Made by a program: the position numbers and the translations under genes
In this document: in pieces, positions 5,310-49,026 of the stretch
Layout: every line of letters starts with the position of its first letter
Position numbering within the stretch: the first letter of the stretch is position 1
Notes under the pieces: model-generated
Databases searched by the model: none
Seen by the model: only the letters and a program-made list of their open reading frames with translations
Told to the model about the DNA's origin: nothing
Origin: Candidatus Saccharimonadota bacterium
GTDB taxonomy: Bacteria > Patescibacteriota > Saccharimonadia > Saccharimonadales > CAIOMD01
Direction of reading: 5' to 3'
Assembly: GCA_018062805.1 (NCBI GenBank)
Contig: JAGORN010000001.1
Location: forward strand, 805 to 64,804
Length of the DNA stretch: 64,000 nucleotides

Positions 5310-5399
5310 AAAATAGTTGCTACCGCTAGTAGTTTTTTTATTTGGCATGTCGATATAGCGTAAATTGAGTTACAATTGTTCTTAAAGAAGTTTTTTAAA

Positions 5400-6497
5400 A
5401 TGGAAGAATATATAGAAAATCTCAAAGTTGTTGGCTCTCTAAGTAAATTATTTAGCGATAGCTCAAAGCCATATCTTTATTACAGGGTTGCCGAAAAACT
5501 ATACAATCAAGCTTTCGGGGCTACTGACGTATCTCGTAATGATATAGCTATTGATTCTATTTTTAAGAAAAAAGGCGTTGGTTTAAAAACATTTGTTGGT
5601 CATAATGGCAAAAAATCATATCAAAAAGTTGCTGAGTTTAATGCTTTGAAGGTTGAACTAGATAATATACTAGCTAATAGAGGTCAAAAAGAGTATATCA
5701 AAGCAATATCTAACTATCGCAATGATAGAATAAGTTATGCTCTAGATACATTTGATTTGAATGGTGCGATTTACCACAGTGTAGTACGAGACGTTGGAAA
5801 GTTCAAAATAATCGAAGAGCCTATGCATTTAATACAAGTAGATGATATCCAAAATATTAAAGGCGATAAAATAATCAATTTTGATGACGGCATAGAAGCT
5901 TATAAATATAATGTGTCTAAAAGTACGCTCTTTAAACAATTTAATGAATCTAGCGTCCTAGAAGTTTTTGATGTCAAAATTGTTGACAGCCCGCTAGAAA
6001 CCCTGAAGAAACTAACTCAAAAACTAAAAATTGATAATACCGTTAGTGAGCAGGCGTCTGTTATTCTACCTCTTTACTCTACTAGAACTGGTAAAGTGCC
6101 AGAGCGTAGTGGCCTAAACCAATGGAACGCTGAAGGTAGACCTAGGAATTTATTTGAGATTTACATATCAGTACCTGCATTCATTCACAAAAAATTTCCC
6201 GATTTTTTTCCAGCAAGAGATACTAAATTCTCTTTACTGTTACCTAATAAAAAAGTGGTAAGTGCTAAAATTTGTCAAGATAATGGTAAAGCCTTAATGA
6301 GTGATCCGAATGCTGAATTGGGAGAATGGTTATTTAGAAAAGGATTAAATTTTCAACCAGGAAAGTTAGTTTCACGAGAGATGCTAAATAGGGTAGGGAT
6401 TGATAGCGTAGAAATAACTAAAAAAGACAGTAATGAATATGAACTTAGTTTAAGAAAACTCGGCTCCTTTGATGAATTTGTCGGTATGAATAGTTAA
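5400..6497 (+). CDS. putative type II restriction endonuclease (specificity unknown)
   Basis: Orphan 365-aa protein, tail to tail (10-bp gap) with a C5-methyltransferase gene. About 27-33% GC in sampled 60-nt lines, against about 40-45% in flanking genes. Possible PD-(D/E)XK-like element DIAIDS...GVGLKT. The function is assigned by context only. Confidence 0.5.
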   Translation: MEEYIENLKVVGSLSKLFSDSSKPYLYYRVAEKLYNQAFGATDVSRNDIAIDSIFKKKGVGLKTFVGHNGKKSYQKVAEFNALKVELDNILANRGQKEYIKAISNYRNDRISYALDTFDLNGAIYHSVVRDVGKFKIIEEPMHLIQVDDIQNIKGDKIINFDDGIEAYKYNVSKSTLFKQFNESSVLEVFDVKIVDSPLETLKKLTQKLKIDNTVSEQASVILPLYSTRTGKVPERSGLNQWNAEGRPRNLFEIYISVPAFIHKKFPDFFPARDTKFSLLLPNKKVVSAKICQDNGKALMSDPNAELGEWLFRKGLNFQPGKLVSREMLNRVGIDSVEITKKDSNEYELSLRKLGSFDEFVGMNS

Positions 6498-6507
6498 TAG
6501 TTTACAC

Positions 6508-8064
6508 TCACAGTACCTTCATCATAGATTCAGCAATACGTTCGATGACCGGTACGGTGACCGAGTTTCCTGCTTGTTTATAAAGTGCCGAGTCGGCAAG
6601 ATTTTTAGGTAGCTTGAAGTCGTCTGGGAACCCTTGTAACCTAAAGCACTCCCTTGGAGTAAGTTTTCTGATACCTTTTTTATCTTTAATTATCGGCACG
6701 TTGTGGCCTCCCATTCCCATGTTGGCTGTTAGGGTCGGGCAGACTCCTTTCTTATTCTTTCTAACGTATTGCCTTCTCCATTGATAAACCTGACCTTCTT
6801 CGTTTACATCATTTTTAATTCTATTGTATAGTGGTTTACCATCGTAATAATATTTTTCTCCTACAGTAGCTTCTAAAAGATCTTTAACTTGGGTGGTTAA
6901 ATCAATTTTTTCTGGAAATTGAAATTCCTCAGTTTTAGTTTTGTCTTTGAACCCGACTATATATATTCTTTCTCTATTTTGAGGCACGTTGCCATAATCC
7001 ATACTGTTAAGAACTTTTGTTTTTATATGATAACCAAGTTCTTTTAAAACTTGTTCAATAACTTTGAAAGTGTTGCCATTGTCGTGAGATTTTAAATTTT
7101 TGACGTTTTCCAGCAAGAAGCCAGTAGGTTGCTTTTTTTTGAGTATTTCCGCAATATCAAAAAAAAGGTTACCTCTATCTTTTTCGTCTTTAAAACCCTG
7201 TCTATGGCCTGCAATTGAAAAAGCTTGGCAAGGGAAGCCACCCAGTAATAAATCAAATTTTGGTAGGTCATCTATGTCGATTTTTCGTATATCCTCGACC
7301 GTCAGCTTTGTTGTTTCAAAGTTTAAATCATAGGTATATGAGCACGATTTTTCAAAATCGTTGGCGAAAACGGTTTCAAAACCAGCTTTTTCAAAACCGA
7401 GCCTAATTCCACCAATACCTGCAAATAAATCTAGCGTTTTATACGGCTTCACGGCAGTCTTCGGGGTTTGGTTGTTAATTCTTCTTCTTATTTCATAAAC
7501 AACTCCTCTAACTTCTACTTCTTCCCGAAAAAGAGGCAATAGCGCTTGGTTTGCTGGTTGGAGTCTGAAACCATTAGTTTCTCGGAATAGTTTTTTGAGA
7601 GTCGCTTTTTCGTTGTCGATAATTGCAACGACAGTTTGACCGTTCTGTGCGCTAGACTGTTTTTTAATAATTACCACGTCGCCATCAAAAATTCCCTCGT
7701 CTATCATGCTATCTCCTGCAACATTTAGAGCGAAAAACTCTTCATGCTCTGAGAGGTTATAAGCTTCGATATAATCATTTTCAACTTCTTCATAGACATC
7801 TATTGGCTGACCAGCAGTTATTGTTCCGATAATTGGTACTTTAAGTAGTGTCGGTTCGTTTTTTTCTAAAATTAAGAGCTCGCCATAGTTATCACCTTGG
7901 CTTAGATAGCCTTTTTTAATTAACTCTTTAACGTGCTGATGAACTGTAGAGGGAGATTTAACTCCCATGCTTTCAGCAATTATCTTCAAGGTCGGGGAAT
8001 AGCCATTTTCTAGCGTGTATTGCTCTATGAACTTAAGGGTTTTTCTTTGTTTTGAAGTGATCAT
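6508..8064 (-). CDS. fusion protein: full-length LexA-like repressor (wHTH plus S24 peptidase) joined to a DNA (cytosine-5)-methyltransferase
   Basis: The N-terminus MITSKQRKTLKFIEQYTLENGYSPTLKIIAESMGVKSPSTVHQHVKELIKKGYL is a LexA wHTH. IIGTITAGQP gives the Ala-Gly cleavage site, VAGDSM the Ser nucleophile and ATLKKL the Lys. The C-terminal half has DLFAGIGG (motif I), GFPCQAFSIAG (IV), ENVKNL (VI), QNRERIYIVGF (VIII) and GNSVTVPV (X). It is one uninterrupted ORF. The likely start is Met14 of the track ORF. Confidence 0.85.
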   Translation of the reverse strand: MITSKQRKTLKFIEQYTLENGYSPTLKIIAESMGVKSPSTVHQHVKELIKKGYLSQGDNYGELLILEKNEPTLLKVPIIGTITAGQPIDVYEEVENDYIEAYNLSEHEEFFALNVAGDSMIDEGIFDGDVVIIKKQSSAQNGQTVVAIIDNEKATLKKLFRETNGFRLQPANQALLPLFREEVEVRGVVYEIRRRINNQTPKTAVKPYKTLDLFAGIGGIRLGFEKAGFETVFANDFEKSCSYTYDLNFETTKLTVEDIRKIDIDDLPKFDLLLGGFPCQAFSIAGHRQGFKDEKDRGNLFFDIAEILKKKQPTGFLLENVKNLKSHDNGNTFKVIEQVLKELGYHIKTKVLNSMDYGNVPQNRERIYIVGFKDKTKTEEFQFPEKIDLTTQVKDLLEATVGEKYYYDGKPLYNRIKNDVNEEGQVYQWRRQYVRKNKKGVCPTLTANMGMGGHNVPIIKDKKGIRKLTPRECFRLQGFPDDFKLPKNLADSALYKQAGNSVTVPVIERIAESMMKVL

Positions 8065-8119
8065 ATAGGAATAATATACGAAAAAAACAGAAAAGTGAAG
8101 CATTTTTTATAATACTATA

Positions 8120-8136
8120 AATATTGATTCAATATT
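8120..8136. promoter_or_regulatory. 17-bp perfect palindrome AATATTGA-T-TCAATATT, candidate operator
   Basis: Perfect 8+1+8 inverted repeat, 56 nt upstream of the LexA-MTase ATG. It lies in the divergent intergenic region shared with proS and contains a TTGAAT -35-like hexamer on the minus strand. Confidence 0.4.
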
Positions 8137-8179
8137 GCGTCCAGTTGGTTGTGGTGAGGGTCTGGTATAATTGCTAGAC

Positions 8180-9889
8180 ATGAGAGCAACAAAATTATTC
8201 ACAAAAACTAGTAAAACCGTGCCTGCAGACGAAACTGCTAAAAATGCTCAGTTACTCATCCAGGCTGGTTTTATTCACAAGGAAATGGCTGGGGTTTACG
8301 TATATTTGCCACTGGGCCTTATAGTACTAGAAAAAATTAAGCAAATTGTTCGTGAAGAAATGAATGCGGTAGATAGCCAAGAATTAATGATGACCACTCT
8401 GCAACCAAAAGAACTTTGGGAAAAAACAGACAGATGGGACGACAGCAAGGTTGACAATTGGTTCAAGACCAAACTAGCCAGTGGTGCTGAGCTAGGTGTT
8501 GGCTTGACGCATGAAGAACCAGTCGTCGATGCTGTCAGTCAATACTTAAAATCCTACAAGGATATGCCATTTTCGGTTTACCAAATTCAAAATAAGTTTC
8601 GAAATGAACTGCGAGCTAAAAACGGCTTGCTTAGGGGTCGTGAATTTGTCATGAAGGACGCTTATTCTTTTGCCACCAGCGACCTTCAACATAAAGAAAT
8701 ATATGAGAAAATTGCTTCTGCCTACACAAAAGTTTATGACCGACTAGGAATTGGTGATATTACCTTCAGAACCAAAGCCGACGGAGGCTATTTTACAGAA
8801 AAATTAAGCGACGAATACCAGACCATGAGCCAAGCAGGTGAAGATAAAGTCTTTTTTGTTAAAGAAGATAATATCTATTACAATCAAGAAGTGGCGCCCT
8901 CTAAGGCCCTAGATCTAGATTTAAAAGACGAGCCTTTAGCCGATTTTCAGGAAGTTAAAGCAGAAAATATTATTGGGGCCACTGAGCTTGCCAAGCATTT
9001 TAAATTGCGGCTCGAGCAAACAACCAAGACAATTTTTTACACTTCAGCTAGCGGTAAAATGATTGCCGCGGTGGTTCGTGGTGACTATGATATTAACGAA
9101 ATAAAACTAGCCAGAAGTGCTGGCATTAGTTCGTTGTTGTTAGCCAACGAAGAAACGGTCAAAAAAATAACAGGCGCCAGTGTTGGCTACGCTGGTTTAA
9201 TTAATCTGCCAGCAGAAGTGGATATTTTTGTAGATGAATCTTGCCAAAATTTAATGAATTTTGAAATGGGTACCAATAAAACTGGCTATCATGCAATTAA
9301 CGTGAACTGGGGAAGAGATGTTAAACAACCGGCTCAATACTATGACATAAAAGTTGCCAAAGAAGGCGATATTAACCCTGAGACAGGTAAAAAGTATGCC
9401 ATGCACCGGGCGGTTGAAGTTGGTAATATTTTCCCTCTCGAATCTAAATACACCGATGCGCTCGGTTTATACTACAGCGATCAAAACGGCGATAATCAGT
9501 CGATAATAATGGGTTGTTACGGCATAGGCATCAGTCGCTTAATGGGTGTGCTGGCAGAATTATTTGCCGACGACAAAGGTTTAGTCTGGCCTGAGTCAGT
9601 AGCGCCATTTAAAGTCTTTTTAGCTCAAATTGGCGTAGATGACCAAGTTTCAGCAGAGTGCCAGAAGTTATACGATGAACTAAGTAACGATGCTATTGAA
9701 GTGTTCTGGGACGACCGGCAAGTTCGTCCAGGTGAAAAATTTGCCGACGCTGACCTTTATGGTATTCCTTATAGACTGGTTGTGAGTCAAAAAACTATCC
9801 AATCTGGTGTTTATGAGCTAAAAAAGAGAACCGACAATGACCTCAAAATGATTAATAAAAATGAGTTGTTTAAAATATTGGCAAGCTAG
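8180..9889 (+). CDS. proS: prolyl-tRNA synthetase (bacterial type with editing insertion)
   Basis: MRATKLFTKTSKTVPADETAKNAQLLIQAGFI, FRNELRAKNGLLRGREFVMKDAYSF (class II motif 2) and GCYGIGISR (motif 3). TGgTATAAT at 8163-8171 lies 8 nt from ATG 8180. Confidence 0.95.
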   Translation: MRATKLFTKTSKTVPADETAKNAQLLIQAGFIHKEMAGVYVYLPLGLIVLEKIKQIVREEMNAVDSQELMMTTLQPKELWEKTDRWDDSKVDNWFKTKLASGAELGVGLTHEEPVVDAVSQYLKSYKDMPFSVYQIQNKFRNELRAKNGLLRGREFVMKDAYSFATSDLQHKEIYEKIASAYTKVYDRLGIGDITFRTKADGGYFTEKLSDEYQTMSQAGEDKVFFVKEDNIYYNQEVAPSKALDLDLKDEPLADFQEVKAENIIGATELAKHFKLRLEQTTKTIFYTSASGKMIAAVVRGDYDINEIKLARSAGISSLLLANEETVKKITGASVGYAGLINLPAEVDIFVDESCQNLMNFEMGTNKTGYHAINVNWGRDVKQPAQYYDIKVAKEGDINPETGKKYAMHRAVEVGNIFPLESKYTDALGLYYSDQNGDNQSIIMGCYGIGISRLMGVLAELFADDKGLVWPESVAPFKVFLAQIGVDDQVSAECQKLYDELSNDAIEVFWDDRQVRPGEKFADADLYGIPYRLVVSQKTIQSGVYELKKRTDNDLKMINKNELFKILAS

Positions 9890-48462: not shown

Positions 48463-49026
48463 ATGAACAGAATTTTACCGAAAGAATATAGGCTTGTTCC
48501 TAAAAGCGCAAAAAAAGTATTTGCAGGCGAAATATTCGATATTTACCAATGGAATCAACAGATGTATGACGGCTCGTTAGGGAAGTTCGAAATGGCGAAA
48601 CGAACCGACACTGTTCAAGTACTAGGTATTGATGGCCAGTCACTAATTGTCCTGAACGAACAACAGCCAGACGGCACTAAAAGAGACTTTGGATTACCTG
48701 GTGGGCGGATTGACCCTGAAGATGCCAGCCCGCTAGACGCCGCAAAAAGAGAAATGCTAGAAGAAACTGGCTATAGTTTTAAAAACTGGAAGTTGCTAAA
48801 CGTCAGACAGCCTCAACGCAAAATTGAATGGTTCGTCTATTTATTTGTGGCCTGGGAGTTTGTTGGTATACAGGAACAAAAAATAGATGTAGGCGAGAAA
48901 ATTAAAGTTGTAAAAACGGACTGGCCGACATACCTAAAAAAGGGTAACCCACCGACAATTTACGAAAATAATCTTACAGAGTATAAAAACCTAAGTGGCC
49001 TAATAGAAGCGCCAGAGTTCAAATAA
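48463..49026 (+). CDS. NUDIX hydrolase
   Basis: GGRIDPEDASPLDAAKREMLEETGY fits the Nudix box GX5EX7REUXEEXGU. Confidence 0.85.
   Translation: MNRILPKEYRLVPKSAKKVFAGEIFDIYQWNQQMYDGSLGKFEMAKRTDTVQVLGIDGQSLIVLNEQQPDGTKRDFGLPGGRIDPEDASPLDAAKREMLEETGYSFKNWKLLNVRQPQRKIEWFVYLFVAWEFVGIQEQKIDVGEKIKVVKTDWPTYLKKGNPPTIYENNLTEYKNLSGLIEAPEFK

Follow-up and report, generated by a model that had tools for sequence, protein, structure and literature searches.

In a 64-kb stretch of contig JAGORN010000001.1 from a Candidatus Saccharimonadota bacterium (64,000 nt, hereafter the window), a single gene encodes a protein in which a LexA homologue with all the residues of the self-cleavage apparatus is joined to a C5 cytosine DNA methyltransferase, and it converges on a candidate restriction endonuclease gene. 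We read the pair, with a probability of about 0.6, as a mobile Type II restriction-modification (R-M) module in which the fused LexA would repress the gene of its own methyltransferase and cleavage triggered by DNA damage would derepress it. The fusion had been noticed in a first-pass annotation of the window. What that annotation had missed is that the protein belongs to a family spread across the candidate phyla radiation (CPR), in which LexA is joined to methyltransferases of all classes and a conserved operator precedes the genes.

The fusion protein and its relatives

The gene and the predicted parts of its product are as follows.

6508-8064, minus strand: LexA-C5 methyltransferase fusion gene, an open reading frame (ORF) of 1,557 nt encoding 518 amino acids, with stop codon TGA at 6508-6510 (Pfam and NCBIfam domains)
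7885-8064, minus strand: LexA winged helix-turn-helix, residues 1-60, with recognition helix STVHQHVKEL (LexA_DNA_bind; aligns with 3k2z and 7b5g)
7810-7815, minus strand: predicted self-cleavage site Ala84-Gly85 (conservation; alignment with the E. coli LexA site VAAGEP)
7480-7836, minus strand: S24 autoprotease and dimerisation domain, residues 77-195, with Ser119 at 7708-7710 and Lys157 at 7594-7596 (Peptidase_S24)
7444-7479, minus strand: poorly conserved linker, residues 196-207 (column conservation)
6511-7443, minus strand: C5 cytosine DNA methyltransferase domain, residues 208-518, with catalytic Cys279 at 7228-7230 (PF00145; match to M.HhaI)

A Pfam scan places LexA_DNA_bind (PF01726) at residues 2-56 (7.6e-14), Peptidase_S24 (PF00717) at residues 77-189 (5.8e-25) and C-5 DNA_methylase (PF00145) at residues 208-515 (1.7e-98). 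Among the NCBIfam models, the protein scores 156.2 bits against the lexA equivalog TIGR00498, for which the curated cut-off is 110.95, and 353 bits against the dcm model TIGR00675, also above the curated cut-off. The LexA part can be aligned over its whole length with the LexA structures of Thermotoga and E. coli (residues 2-195 on 3k2z), and the alignment puts A84-G85, S119 and K157, found here in the motifs TAGQP, GDSM and TLKKL, onto the LexA cleavage site and catalytic dyad. Judged from its sequence, the N-terminal part has every feature by which a LexA is recognised. The methyltransferase part carries motifs I (FAGIGG), IV (GFPCQ), VI (ENVKN), VIII (QNRERI) and X (GNSV), and matches M.HhaI over its full length (1.8e-63). 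The first-pass annotation had described a full LexA with winged helix, Ala-Gly site, Ser and Lys, and its motifs lie where it quoted them, in agreement with Pfam, TIGR00498 and the structure alignment; its complete 5-methylcytosine (5mC) methyltransferase with the same five motifs is borne out by PF00145 and the full-length M.HhaI match. The linker, put at about 20 residues, measures about 12 (196-207). The ORF lister and the gene callers chose an earlier start codon, the ATG at 8103, which gives a protein of 531 amino acids. The 518-residue start at 8064 appears to be the better one, because it fits the N-terminus of the family and because the conserved promoter lies downstream of the ATG at 8103.

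The uninterrupted gene is not a product of faulty sequencing. Bases 5310-8170, the 2.9-kb module, are 100% identical in six contigs independently assembled from six samples. A word-indexed search recovered at least 120 protein clusters of 511-548 amino acids with the same three domains and 63-70% identity to the fusion. The first-pass annotation had proposed to look for the fusion in related genomes, and when one genome was scanned for each species, 296 loci came up among 185,579 species representatives; the best 80 of the 296 all span residues 1-518, at 60-67% identity. The hosts of these 80 are Saccharibacteria, Paceibacterota, Moranbacteria, Uhrbacteria, Magasanikbacteria, Shapirobacteria, Staskawiczbacteria and other CPR groups. 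TM7i (CP075337.1) is an example of a complete genome with a fusion. The six assemblies and the recurrence of the same architecture across clusters and loci refute the view that separate lexA and dcm genes were joined by a sequencing or assembly error, to which we give practically no chance, and the in-frame fusion claimed in the first-pass annotation stands. The appearance of a truly broken copy can be seen at one related locus (L094, 3640-6132), a decayed module with a 182-residue LexA ORF, a 51-residue fragment, a 166-residue methylase fragment and a truncated NgoFVII_C ORF of 183 residues, with a Vsr fragment upstream. Some annotations of a 'stand-alone LexA' thus stand for fusions that have broken.

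We counted residue conservation in 84 distinct full-length relatives of the fusion (at least 84 exist, at 60-67% identity). Gly85, Ser119 and Lys157 are invariant in all 84 and Ala84 is present in 82; methyltransferase motifs I, IV, VI, VIII and X are likewise invariant in 84 of 84. The mean column conservation of the linker is 0.30, against 0.76 and 0.83 in the flanking domains, and the hinge is also variable. Both enzymatic activities of the fusion appear to be under selection, since the catalytic residues are kept while hinge and linker vary.

The methyltransferase domain alone (residues ~184-518, 46-64% identity) also occurs on the IMG/VR viral contigs L095-L099, several of which are labelled as giant-virus metagenome-assembled genomes; the LexA fusion was not found on these contigs. 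No empty insertion site was found among the six listed places with an identical CPBP protein, all of which carry the module.

The promoter and its putative operator

Directly upstream of the start codon at 8064 lie two elements.

8071-8099, minus strand: promoter of the fusion gene (promoter scan), with -35 TTCACT at 8094-8099, a 17-nt spacer and -10 TATTAT at 8071-8076
8077-8093, minus strand: putative LexA operator, the direct repeat TTTCTGT-ttt-TTTCGTA with a period of 10, which fills the 17-nt promoter spacer

The ATG of the fusion gene stands 6 nt past TATTAT, so its mRNA is likely to be leaderless. The same promoter layout is found in the Saccharibacteria relatives. We compared the 90 nt upstream of fusion genes, which gave 83 distinct upstream regions. 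The shared promoter has a 17-nt spacer filled by a tandem direct repeat, TTTCKNN, with a period of 10-11; TTGACT-TTCGGTttttaTTCGGT-TATAAT is one example among the relatives, and the Saccharibacteria form is TTCACT-TTTCGTAtttTTTCGTA-TATAAT. In 78 of the 83 regions the repeat TTCK-(10/11)-TTCK is present, compared with 5.8% of windows drawn at random from these loci; among the other five regions there are paired variants, for instance ATCGG and TTCAG. The two half-sites of the operator vary together, and they vary with the recognition helix of the LexA part:

recognition helix STVH[QE]H: half-site TTCGG or TTCGT
recognition helix STAH[YH]Y: half-site TTCTA
recognition helix STAHHH: half-site ATCGAA
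recognition helix STVHYH: half-site TTCGAT

The co-variation of a putative operator in the protein's own promoter with the recognition helix argues for autorepression. A repressor sitting in the spacer would obstruct RNA polymerase. Autorepression is therefore the best-supported functional step, and the proposal that the fusion protein represses its own synthesis is strongly supported by the comparison of loci.

The operator seems to be confined to such genes. Across 558 kb of flanks, the locus-specific operator occurs elsewhere at one other LexA-type gene only, and it was not found upstream of the endonuclease genes. No second operator was found in the 64-kb window, where the matches are at chance level; one of them, at 48467-48483, lies inside a NUDIX gene and was judged coincidental. 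Between the fusion gene and the divergent proS, ~20 nt ahead of the -35 element, positions 8120-8136 form a perfect palindrome of 17 bp (AATATTGA-A-TCAATATT, coding strand). We considered it as an operator and rejected it, since none of the related loci has it; it is possibly a chance product of AT-rich DNA.

A separate sequence accompanies many of the related promoters. In relatives L011-L090 and L106 a 9-mer that equals the DnaA-box consensus (TTATCCACA, usually as TGTGGATAA) stands just upstream of the -35 element, ~60-80 nt before the start codon of the fusion gene. Of 81 distinct upstream regions, 29 contain it without a mismatch (background 0.8%) and 48 with at most one (background 5%). 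This suggests a second regulatory input, replication-linked or other, to these methyltransferase genes. The 9-mer is absent from positions 8065-8194 of the window.

Restriction-modification partners and other LexA fusions

The partner of the fusion gene in the window is the following.

5376-6497, plus strand: candidate NgoFVII-family restriction endonuclease gene, 373 amino acids from TTG at 5376 or 365 from ATG at 5400, with a C-terminal B3-like domain

The first-pass annotation had presumed an endonuclease gene lying tail to tail with the fusion gene. The two genes are indeed convergent, with a gap of 10 bp, and a Pfam match (RE_NgoFVII_C, PF20731, 4e-12) identifies a B3-like DNA-recognition domain at the C-terminus of the product; at the N-terminus, a nuclease signature was not recognised by sequence. 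The protein has 2,696 homologues, several of them named 'NgoFVII family restriction endonuclease' by NCBI. The homologues start with 'MF' ~9 residues ahead of the window's ATG, and an in-frame TTG at 5376 would give MFLKKFFK..., so the endonuclease may start at this weak codon.

An AlphaFold2 (AF2) model of the endonuclease, built on an alignment of 50 homologues (predicted local distance difference test score, pLDDT, 91.6), matches R.NgoAVII (1.7e-10) and BfiI in Foldseek, mainly via the B3 domain. Against the DNA-bound B3 domain of NgoAVII the template-modelling (TM) score is ~0.7, and over the whole chain it is only 0.3. Sequence and profile searches with the N-terminal 225 residues gave no PDB or Pfam match. 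The N-terminal domain RE_NgoFVII (PF09565), a PLD-type (phospholipase D-type) nuclease domain, was undetected in the endonuclease and 49 homologues (50/50), and a Pfam scan of 50 homologues at relaxed stringency detected neither a PLD domain nor another nuclease domain. The window protein shares the C-terminal B3-like DNA-recognition domain with R.NgoFVII, R.NgoAVII and BfiI and differs from them in its undetected RE_NgoFVII domain and low whole-chain score. The homologue alignment has seven invariant residues (E32, D48, D52, K63, K76, E79 and H126), which could form an active site. A nuclease fold is likely in this candidate endonuclease.

At the related loci, the fusion gene is followed directly, and almost always, by a convergent gene; these partners fall into six unrelated families:

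Bsp6I-like: 24 loci
NgoFVII_C-like: 18 loci
unknown family A: 16 loci
unknown family B: 11 loci
unknown family C: 10 loci
PDDEXK_5: 9 loci

In four relatives the endonuclease gene is co-directional and downstream. Three of the partner families (16, 11 and 10 loci; ~190-417 amino acids) lack a nuclease-related Pfam match; one member has a sub-threshold match to HTH_17. By position, these three families, with members such as L019 5569-6627, L015 5568-6413 and L023 5571-6614, are candidates for new families of restriction endonucleases that are cognate to one methyltransferase. Upstream of the related fusions there is at times a serine recombinase or Vsr, the usual companion of 5mC methyltransferases. 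The wider contexts are unrelated to one another and include ribosomal protein genes, glycosidases and defence genes. Because the relatives lie in unrelated contexts and are paired with six unrelated partner families, the fusion and the endonuclease gene have the organisation of a mobile Type II R-M module.

The base composition of the window fits this reading in part. The first-pass annotation had called both genes markedly AT-rich. This holds for the endonuclease gene, which at 33.1% GC is the lowest of the 60 ORFs of the window (z = -3.4), whereas the fusion gene, at 37.4% GC and rank 6 of 60, departs only modestly. Horizontal acquisition, as that annotation proposed, fits the recurrence of the pair in unrelated contexts and its AT-richness here. 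Bsp6I cleaves at GCNGC and NgoFVII at GCSGC. Among the 1,024 pentamers of the window, GCWGC ranks 7th in under-representation, with a ratio of 0.67, and GCSGC has a ratio of 0.83. This weakly supports a GCNGC-type specificity; the methyltransferase probably recognises GCNGC or GCSGC. Rfam and tRNA scans of the window gave no matches, and no other LexA, S24 or RecA gene was found in it.

The LexA part is found with other enzymes as well. An exhaustive search with it recovered 192 cluster representatives at E ≤ 1e-30, and among the best 150 of these, 39 are at least 390 amino acids long with LexA at the N-terminus. The 49 matches longer than ~265 amino acids all have LexA_DNA_bind and S24 domains with invariant Ala-Gly, Ser and Lys. 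Their C-terminal parts match the following Pfam families, where one protein may match more than one:

N6_N4_Mtase: 28 members
D12/Dam-like: 7 members
Eco57I-type: 7 members
N6_Mtase: 5 members
MmeI_Mtase: 4 members
C5: 3 members
TaqI_C: 2 members

By these domain matches, all classes of DNA methyltransferase are represented among the enzymes to which the nearest relatives of the LexA part are fused. A LexA-N6_N4 fusion gene converges on a BsoBI-type endonuclease gene and has the same repeat operator; downstream of a gene for a LexA-Eco57I-type fusion lie a second methyltransferase gene, of the C5 class, and an Alw26I-type endonuclease gene.

Some of the close relatives have no methyltransferase. 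A LexA of 278 amino acids, 80 of which extend it at the C-terminus, overlaps the beginning of a NOV_C (DUF3883-type) gene (L007 6001-7603 and L008 432-2034); it shares a contig with a LexA-Dcm fusion 5 kb away and has the same operator, TTTTCGTAT in two copies. This pair suggests that LexA modules in Saccharibacteria also front genes other than methyltransferases. Close stand-alone LexA genes of CPR members adjoin a convergent PLDc_2 gene in one case (L091 1815-3554) and are divergent from GIY-YIG and Shedu SduA_C nuclease genes in another (L092 1480-4369), with the same direct-repeat operator layout in both. Control of defence genes by LexA-type proteins may be common in CPR. No stand-alone LexA of Saccharibacteria was among the matches to the LexA part.

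Proposed regulation, alternatives and significance

In the regulation that we propose, the LexA part, which is of the Patescibacteria type, would dimerise through its S24 domain, and the two winged helices would bind the tandem repeat between the -35 and -10 elements of the gene's own promoter, so that autorepression would hold the methyltransferase at a set level. RecA-coated single-stranded DNA (ssDNA), arising from damage, self-restriction or incoming DNA, would induce S24 to cut between Ala84 and Gly85. Cleavage would free the DNA-binding head, the promoter would open and more methyltransferase would be made, which would protect unmodified DNA arising from repair, recombination or self-restriction. 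A Type II system would in this way have a 'restriction alleviation' set off by damage. The convergent pair has no terminator and its stop codons often overlap at the related loci, and because this layout is conserved, stronger transcription of the methyltransferase gene may run into the endonuclease gene, interfere with its expression and damp it. Such damping is speculative, and the four co-directional cases would be excepted from it.

Several points weigh against this proposal. Cleavage and its dependence on RecA are read from conserved residues, the methyltransferase specificity is read from the partner families and a mild avoidance of sites, and recA was not found in the 64-kb window. The first half-site of the window's operator, TTTCTGT, is a weaker variant. 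E. coli degrades both fragments of LexA once it has been cleaved; if the same happened here, cleavage could lower the amount of methyltransferase instead of raising it. In the co-directional layout, derepression would raise both enzymes, which is a poor fit with simple restriction alleviation. The wider claim, that Type II R-M systems of all methyltransferase classes are wired into the SOS signal across CPR in a way not described before, with RecA-triggered cleavage leading to overproduction of methyltransferase, is tentative, and we put its chances somewhat below even. The operator may be the LexA box of the lineage itself, so that the modules could plug into the SOS circuit of a host, or replace it, on moving.

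Fragment degradation also opens the way to the opposite outcome, a suicide switch. Cleavage would then expose the S24-methyltransferase fragment to proteolysis, methylation would lapse and the endonuclease would kill the cell, in the manner of abortive infection or post-segregational killing. The defence contexts in which close stand-alone LexA relatives adjoin Shedu-type and PLD-type nuclease genes would suit such a role, and R-M modules can act as addiction systems (PMC3874152). However, the same cleavage would also derepress the synthesis of new full-length protein and so counter the loss of methylation, a degradation signal is without evidence, and demethylation of a genome, which needs replication, is slow beside a phage cycle; we consider this very improbable. 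A role as an autorepressor and nothing more deserves greater weight, although it too is rather unlikely. The LexA part would then be a dimerising domain like the N-terminal domain of M.SsoII, setting the level of methyltransferase and its timing after transfer to a new host, and RecA-dependent cleavage would have no physiological role. Autorepression is the sole step with comparative data behind it, and protease-free fused repressor domains serve in SsoII, Ecl18kI and EcoRII. Against this, the Ala-Gly, Ser and Lys residues are invariant or nearly so in the 84 C5 fusions and in 49 fusions with other methyltransferases while hinge and linker drift, and dimerisation as the sole function would not keep residues that serve cleavage only.

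Another alternative is that the fusion is the main or only LexA of the organism, with an SOS regulon, and that the methyltransferase and the restriction gene are secondary additions. The score above the lexA equivalog cut-off, the name 'transcriptional repressor LexA' that NCBI gives to relatives, the operator layout shared with stand-alone CPR LexA genes and the lack of a stand-alone Saccharibacteria LexA among the matches all favour it. So does the direct-repeat operator itself, which is the type of motif that PMC7739468 ascribes, by citation, to Patescibacteria LexA. Yet the fusion is patchily distributed (296 of 185,579 species representatives), its surroundings differ between genomes, with recombinases and defence genes among them, two LexA-type genes stand 5 kb apart on one contig, and further operators were not found in the 64-kb window and, in the 558 kb of flanks, appear only at another LexA-like gene. 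A role as primary SOS regulator is unlikely because the distribution is patchy and the gene mobile.

The nearest known arrangement is that of M.SsoII, M.Ecl18kI, M.EcoRII and M.MspI, C5 methyltransferases with an N-terminal DNA-binding domain and autoregulation (PMC3978073, PMC2760811, PMC12707154). They share with the window protein the fused N-terminal DNA-binding domain, the Type II R-M setting and an operator at their own promoter, which is putative here. Their regulatory region is short (~70 amino acids in M.SsoII), without protease or known signal input, and their operator lies between divergent restriction and modification genes and also controls the restriction gene. The window fusion, in contrast, has a whole LexA of ~195 amino acids with the self-cleavage apparatus intact, the two genes are convergent and the operator stands at the modification promoter only. 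On this comparison the fusion would work like the SsoII-type class with an added signal input, and it is not a member of that class. With canonical LexA (TIGR00498; 3k2z, 1jhh, 3jso) it shares both domains and their order, the Ala-Gly, Ser and Lys residues, and an operator, putative here, at the promoter of its own gene. Canonical LexA is a stand-alone protein of ~200 amino acids with a chromosomal regulon, whereas the fusion carries a C-terminal enzyme of 311 amino acids and moves together with a restriction gene, and no target of it was detected beyond its own promoter. Direct-repeat LexA boxes are described in PMC8565304 and PMC7739468 for Alphaproteobacteria (GTTC-N7-GTTC, period 11) and Balneolaeota, and PMC7739468 cites a Patescibacteria study (Sanchez-Osuna 2017) for direct-repeat motifs.

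Links between DNA damage and defence are known from other systems. In CapH/CapP, CapW/BrxR and CapK/CapS, a defence-locus repressor is inactivated by a DNA-damage or ssDNA signal, by proteolysis in the case of CapH/CapP (10.1101/2022.04.27.489752, PMC11662680, PMC13373217). These regulators have genes of their own, come from unrelated families and are found upstream of immune operons, CBASS and Thoeris among them, whereas the sensor-repressor proposed here forms one polypeptide with the protective enzyme of its R-M system. Restriction alleviation after DNA damage in Type I systems (PMC12707154) has the same outcome as that proposed for the module, a lower risk of self-restriction while repair makes unmodified DNA. 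It proceeds by ClpXP proteolysis of HsdR or by control of assembly, with neither methyltransferase transcription nor LexA involved. LexA is mentioned neither in PMC13373217 nor in the 2025 review of R-M biology (PMC12707154). A published description of the fusion was not found in targeted literature searches, and a passing mention in the 2017 study of the Patescibacteria SOS response is possible. The family is apparently large and undescribed, and databases already carry these fusion proteins as 'transcriptional repressor LexA'.

R-M systems balance the killing of foreign DNA against cutting of their own genome. To our knowledge, the known controls of this balance (C proteins, fused helix-turn-helix domains and antisense RNA) sense the products of their own system only. 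If the proposal is true, a cleavable LexA-methyltransferase gives Type II systems a direct DNA-damage input, which is documented for Type I systems, where it acts through proteolysis, and for some abortive-infection operons. The same design is seen with many families of endonucleases and with methyltransferases of the C5, N4/N6, Dam-like and Eco57I/MmeI types, and this points towards a general rule in CPR, a group of organisms with very small genomes and a small number of regulators. The fusion offers a compact, testable model protein, and the matched variants of operator and recognition helix may serve in understanding how LexA reads direct repeats.

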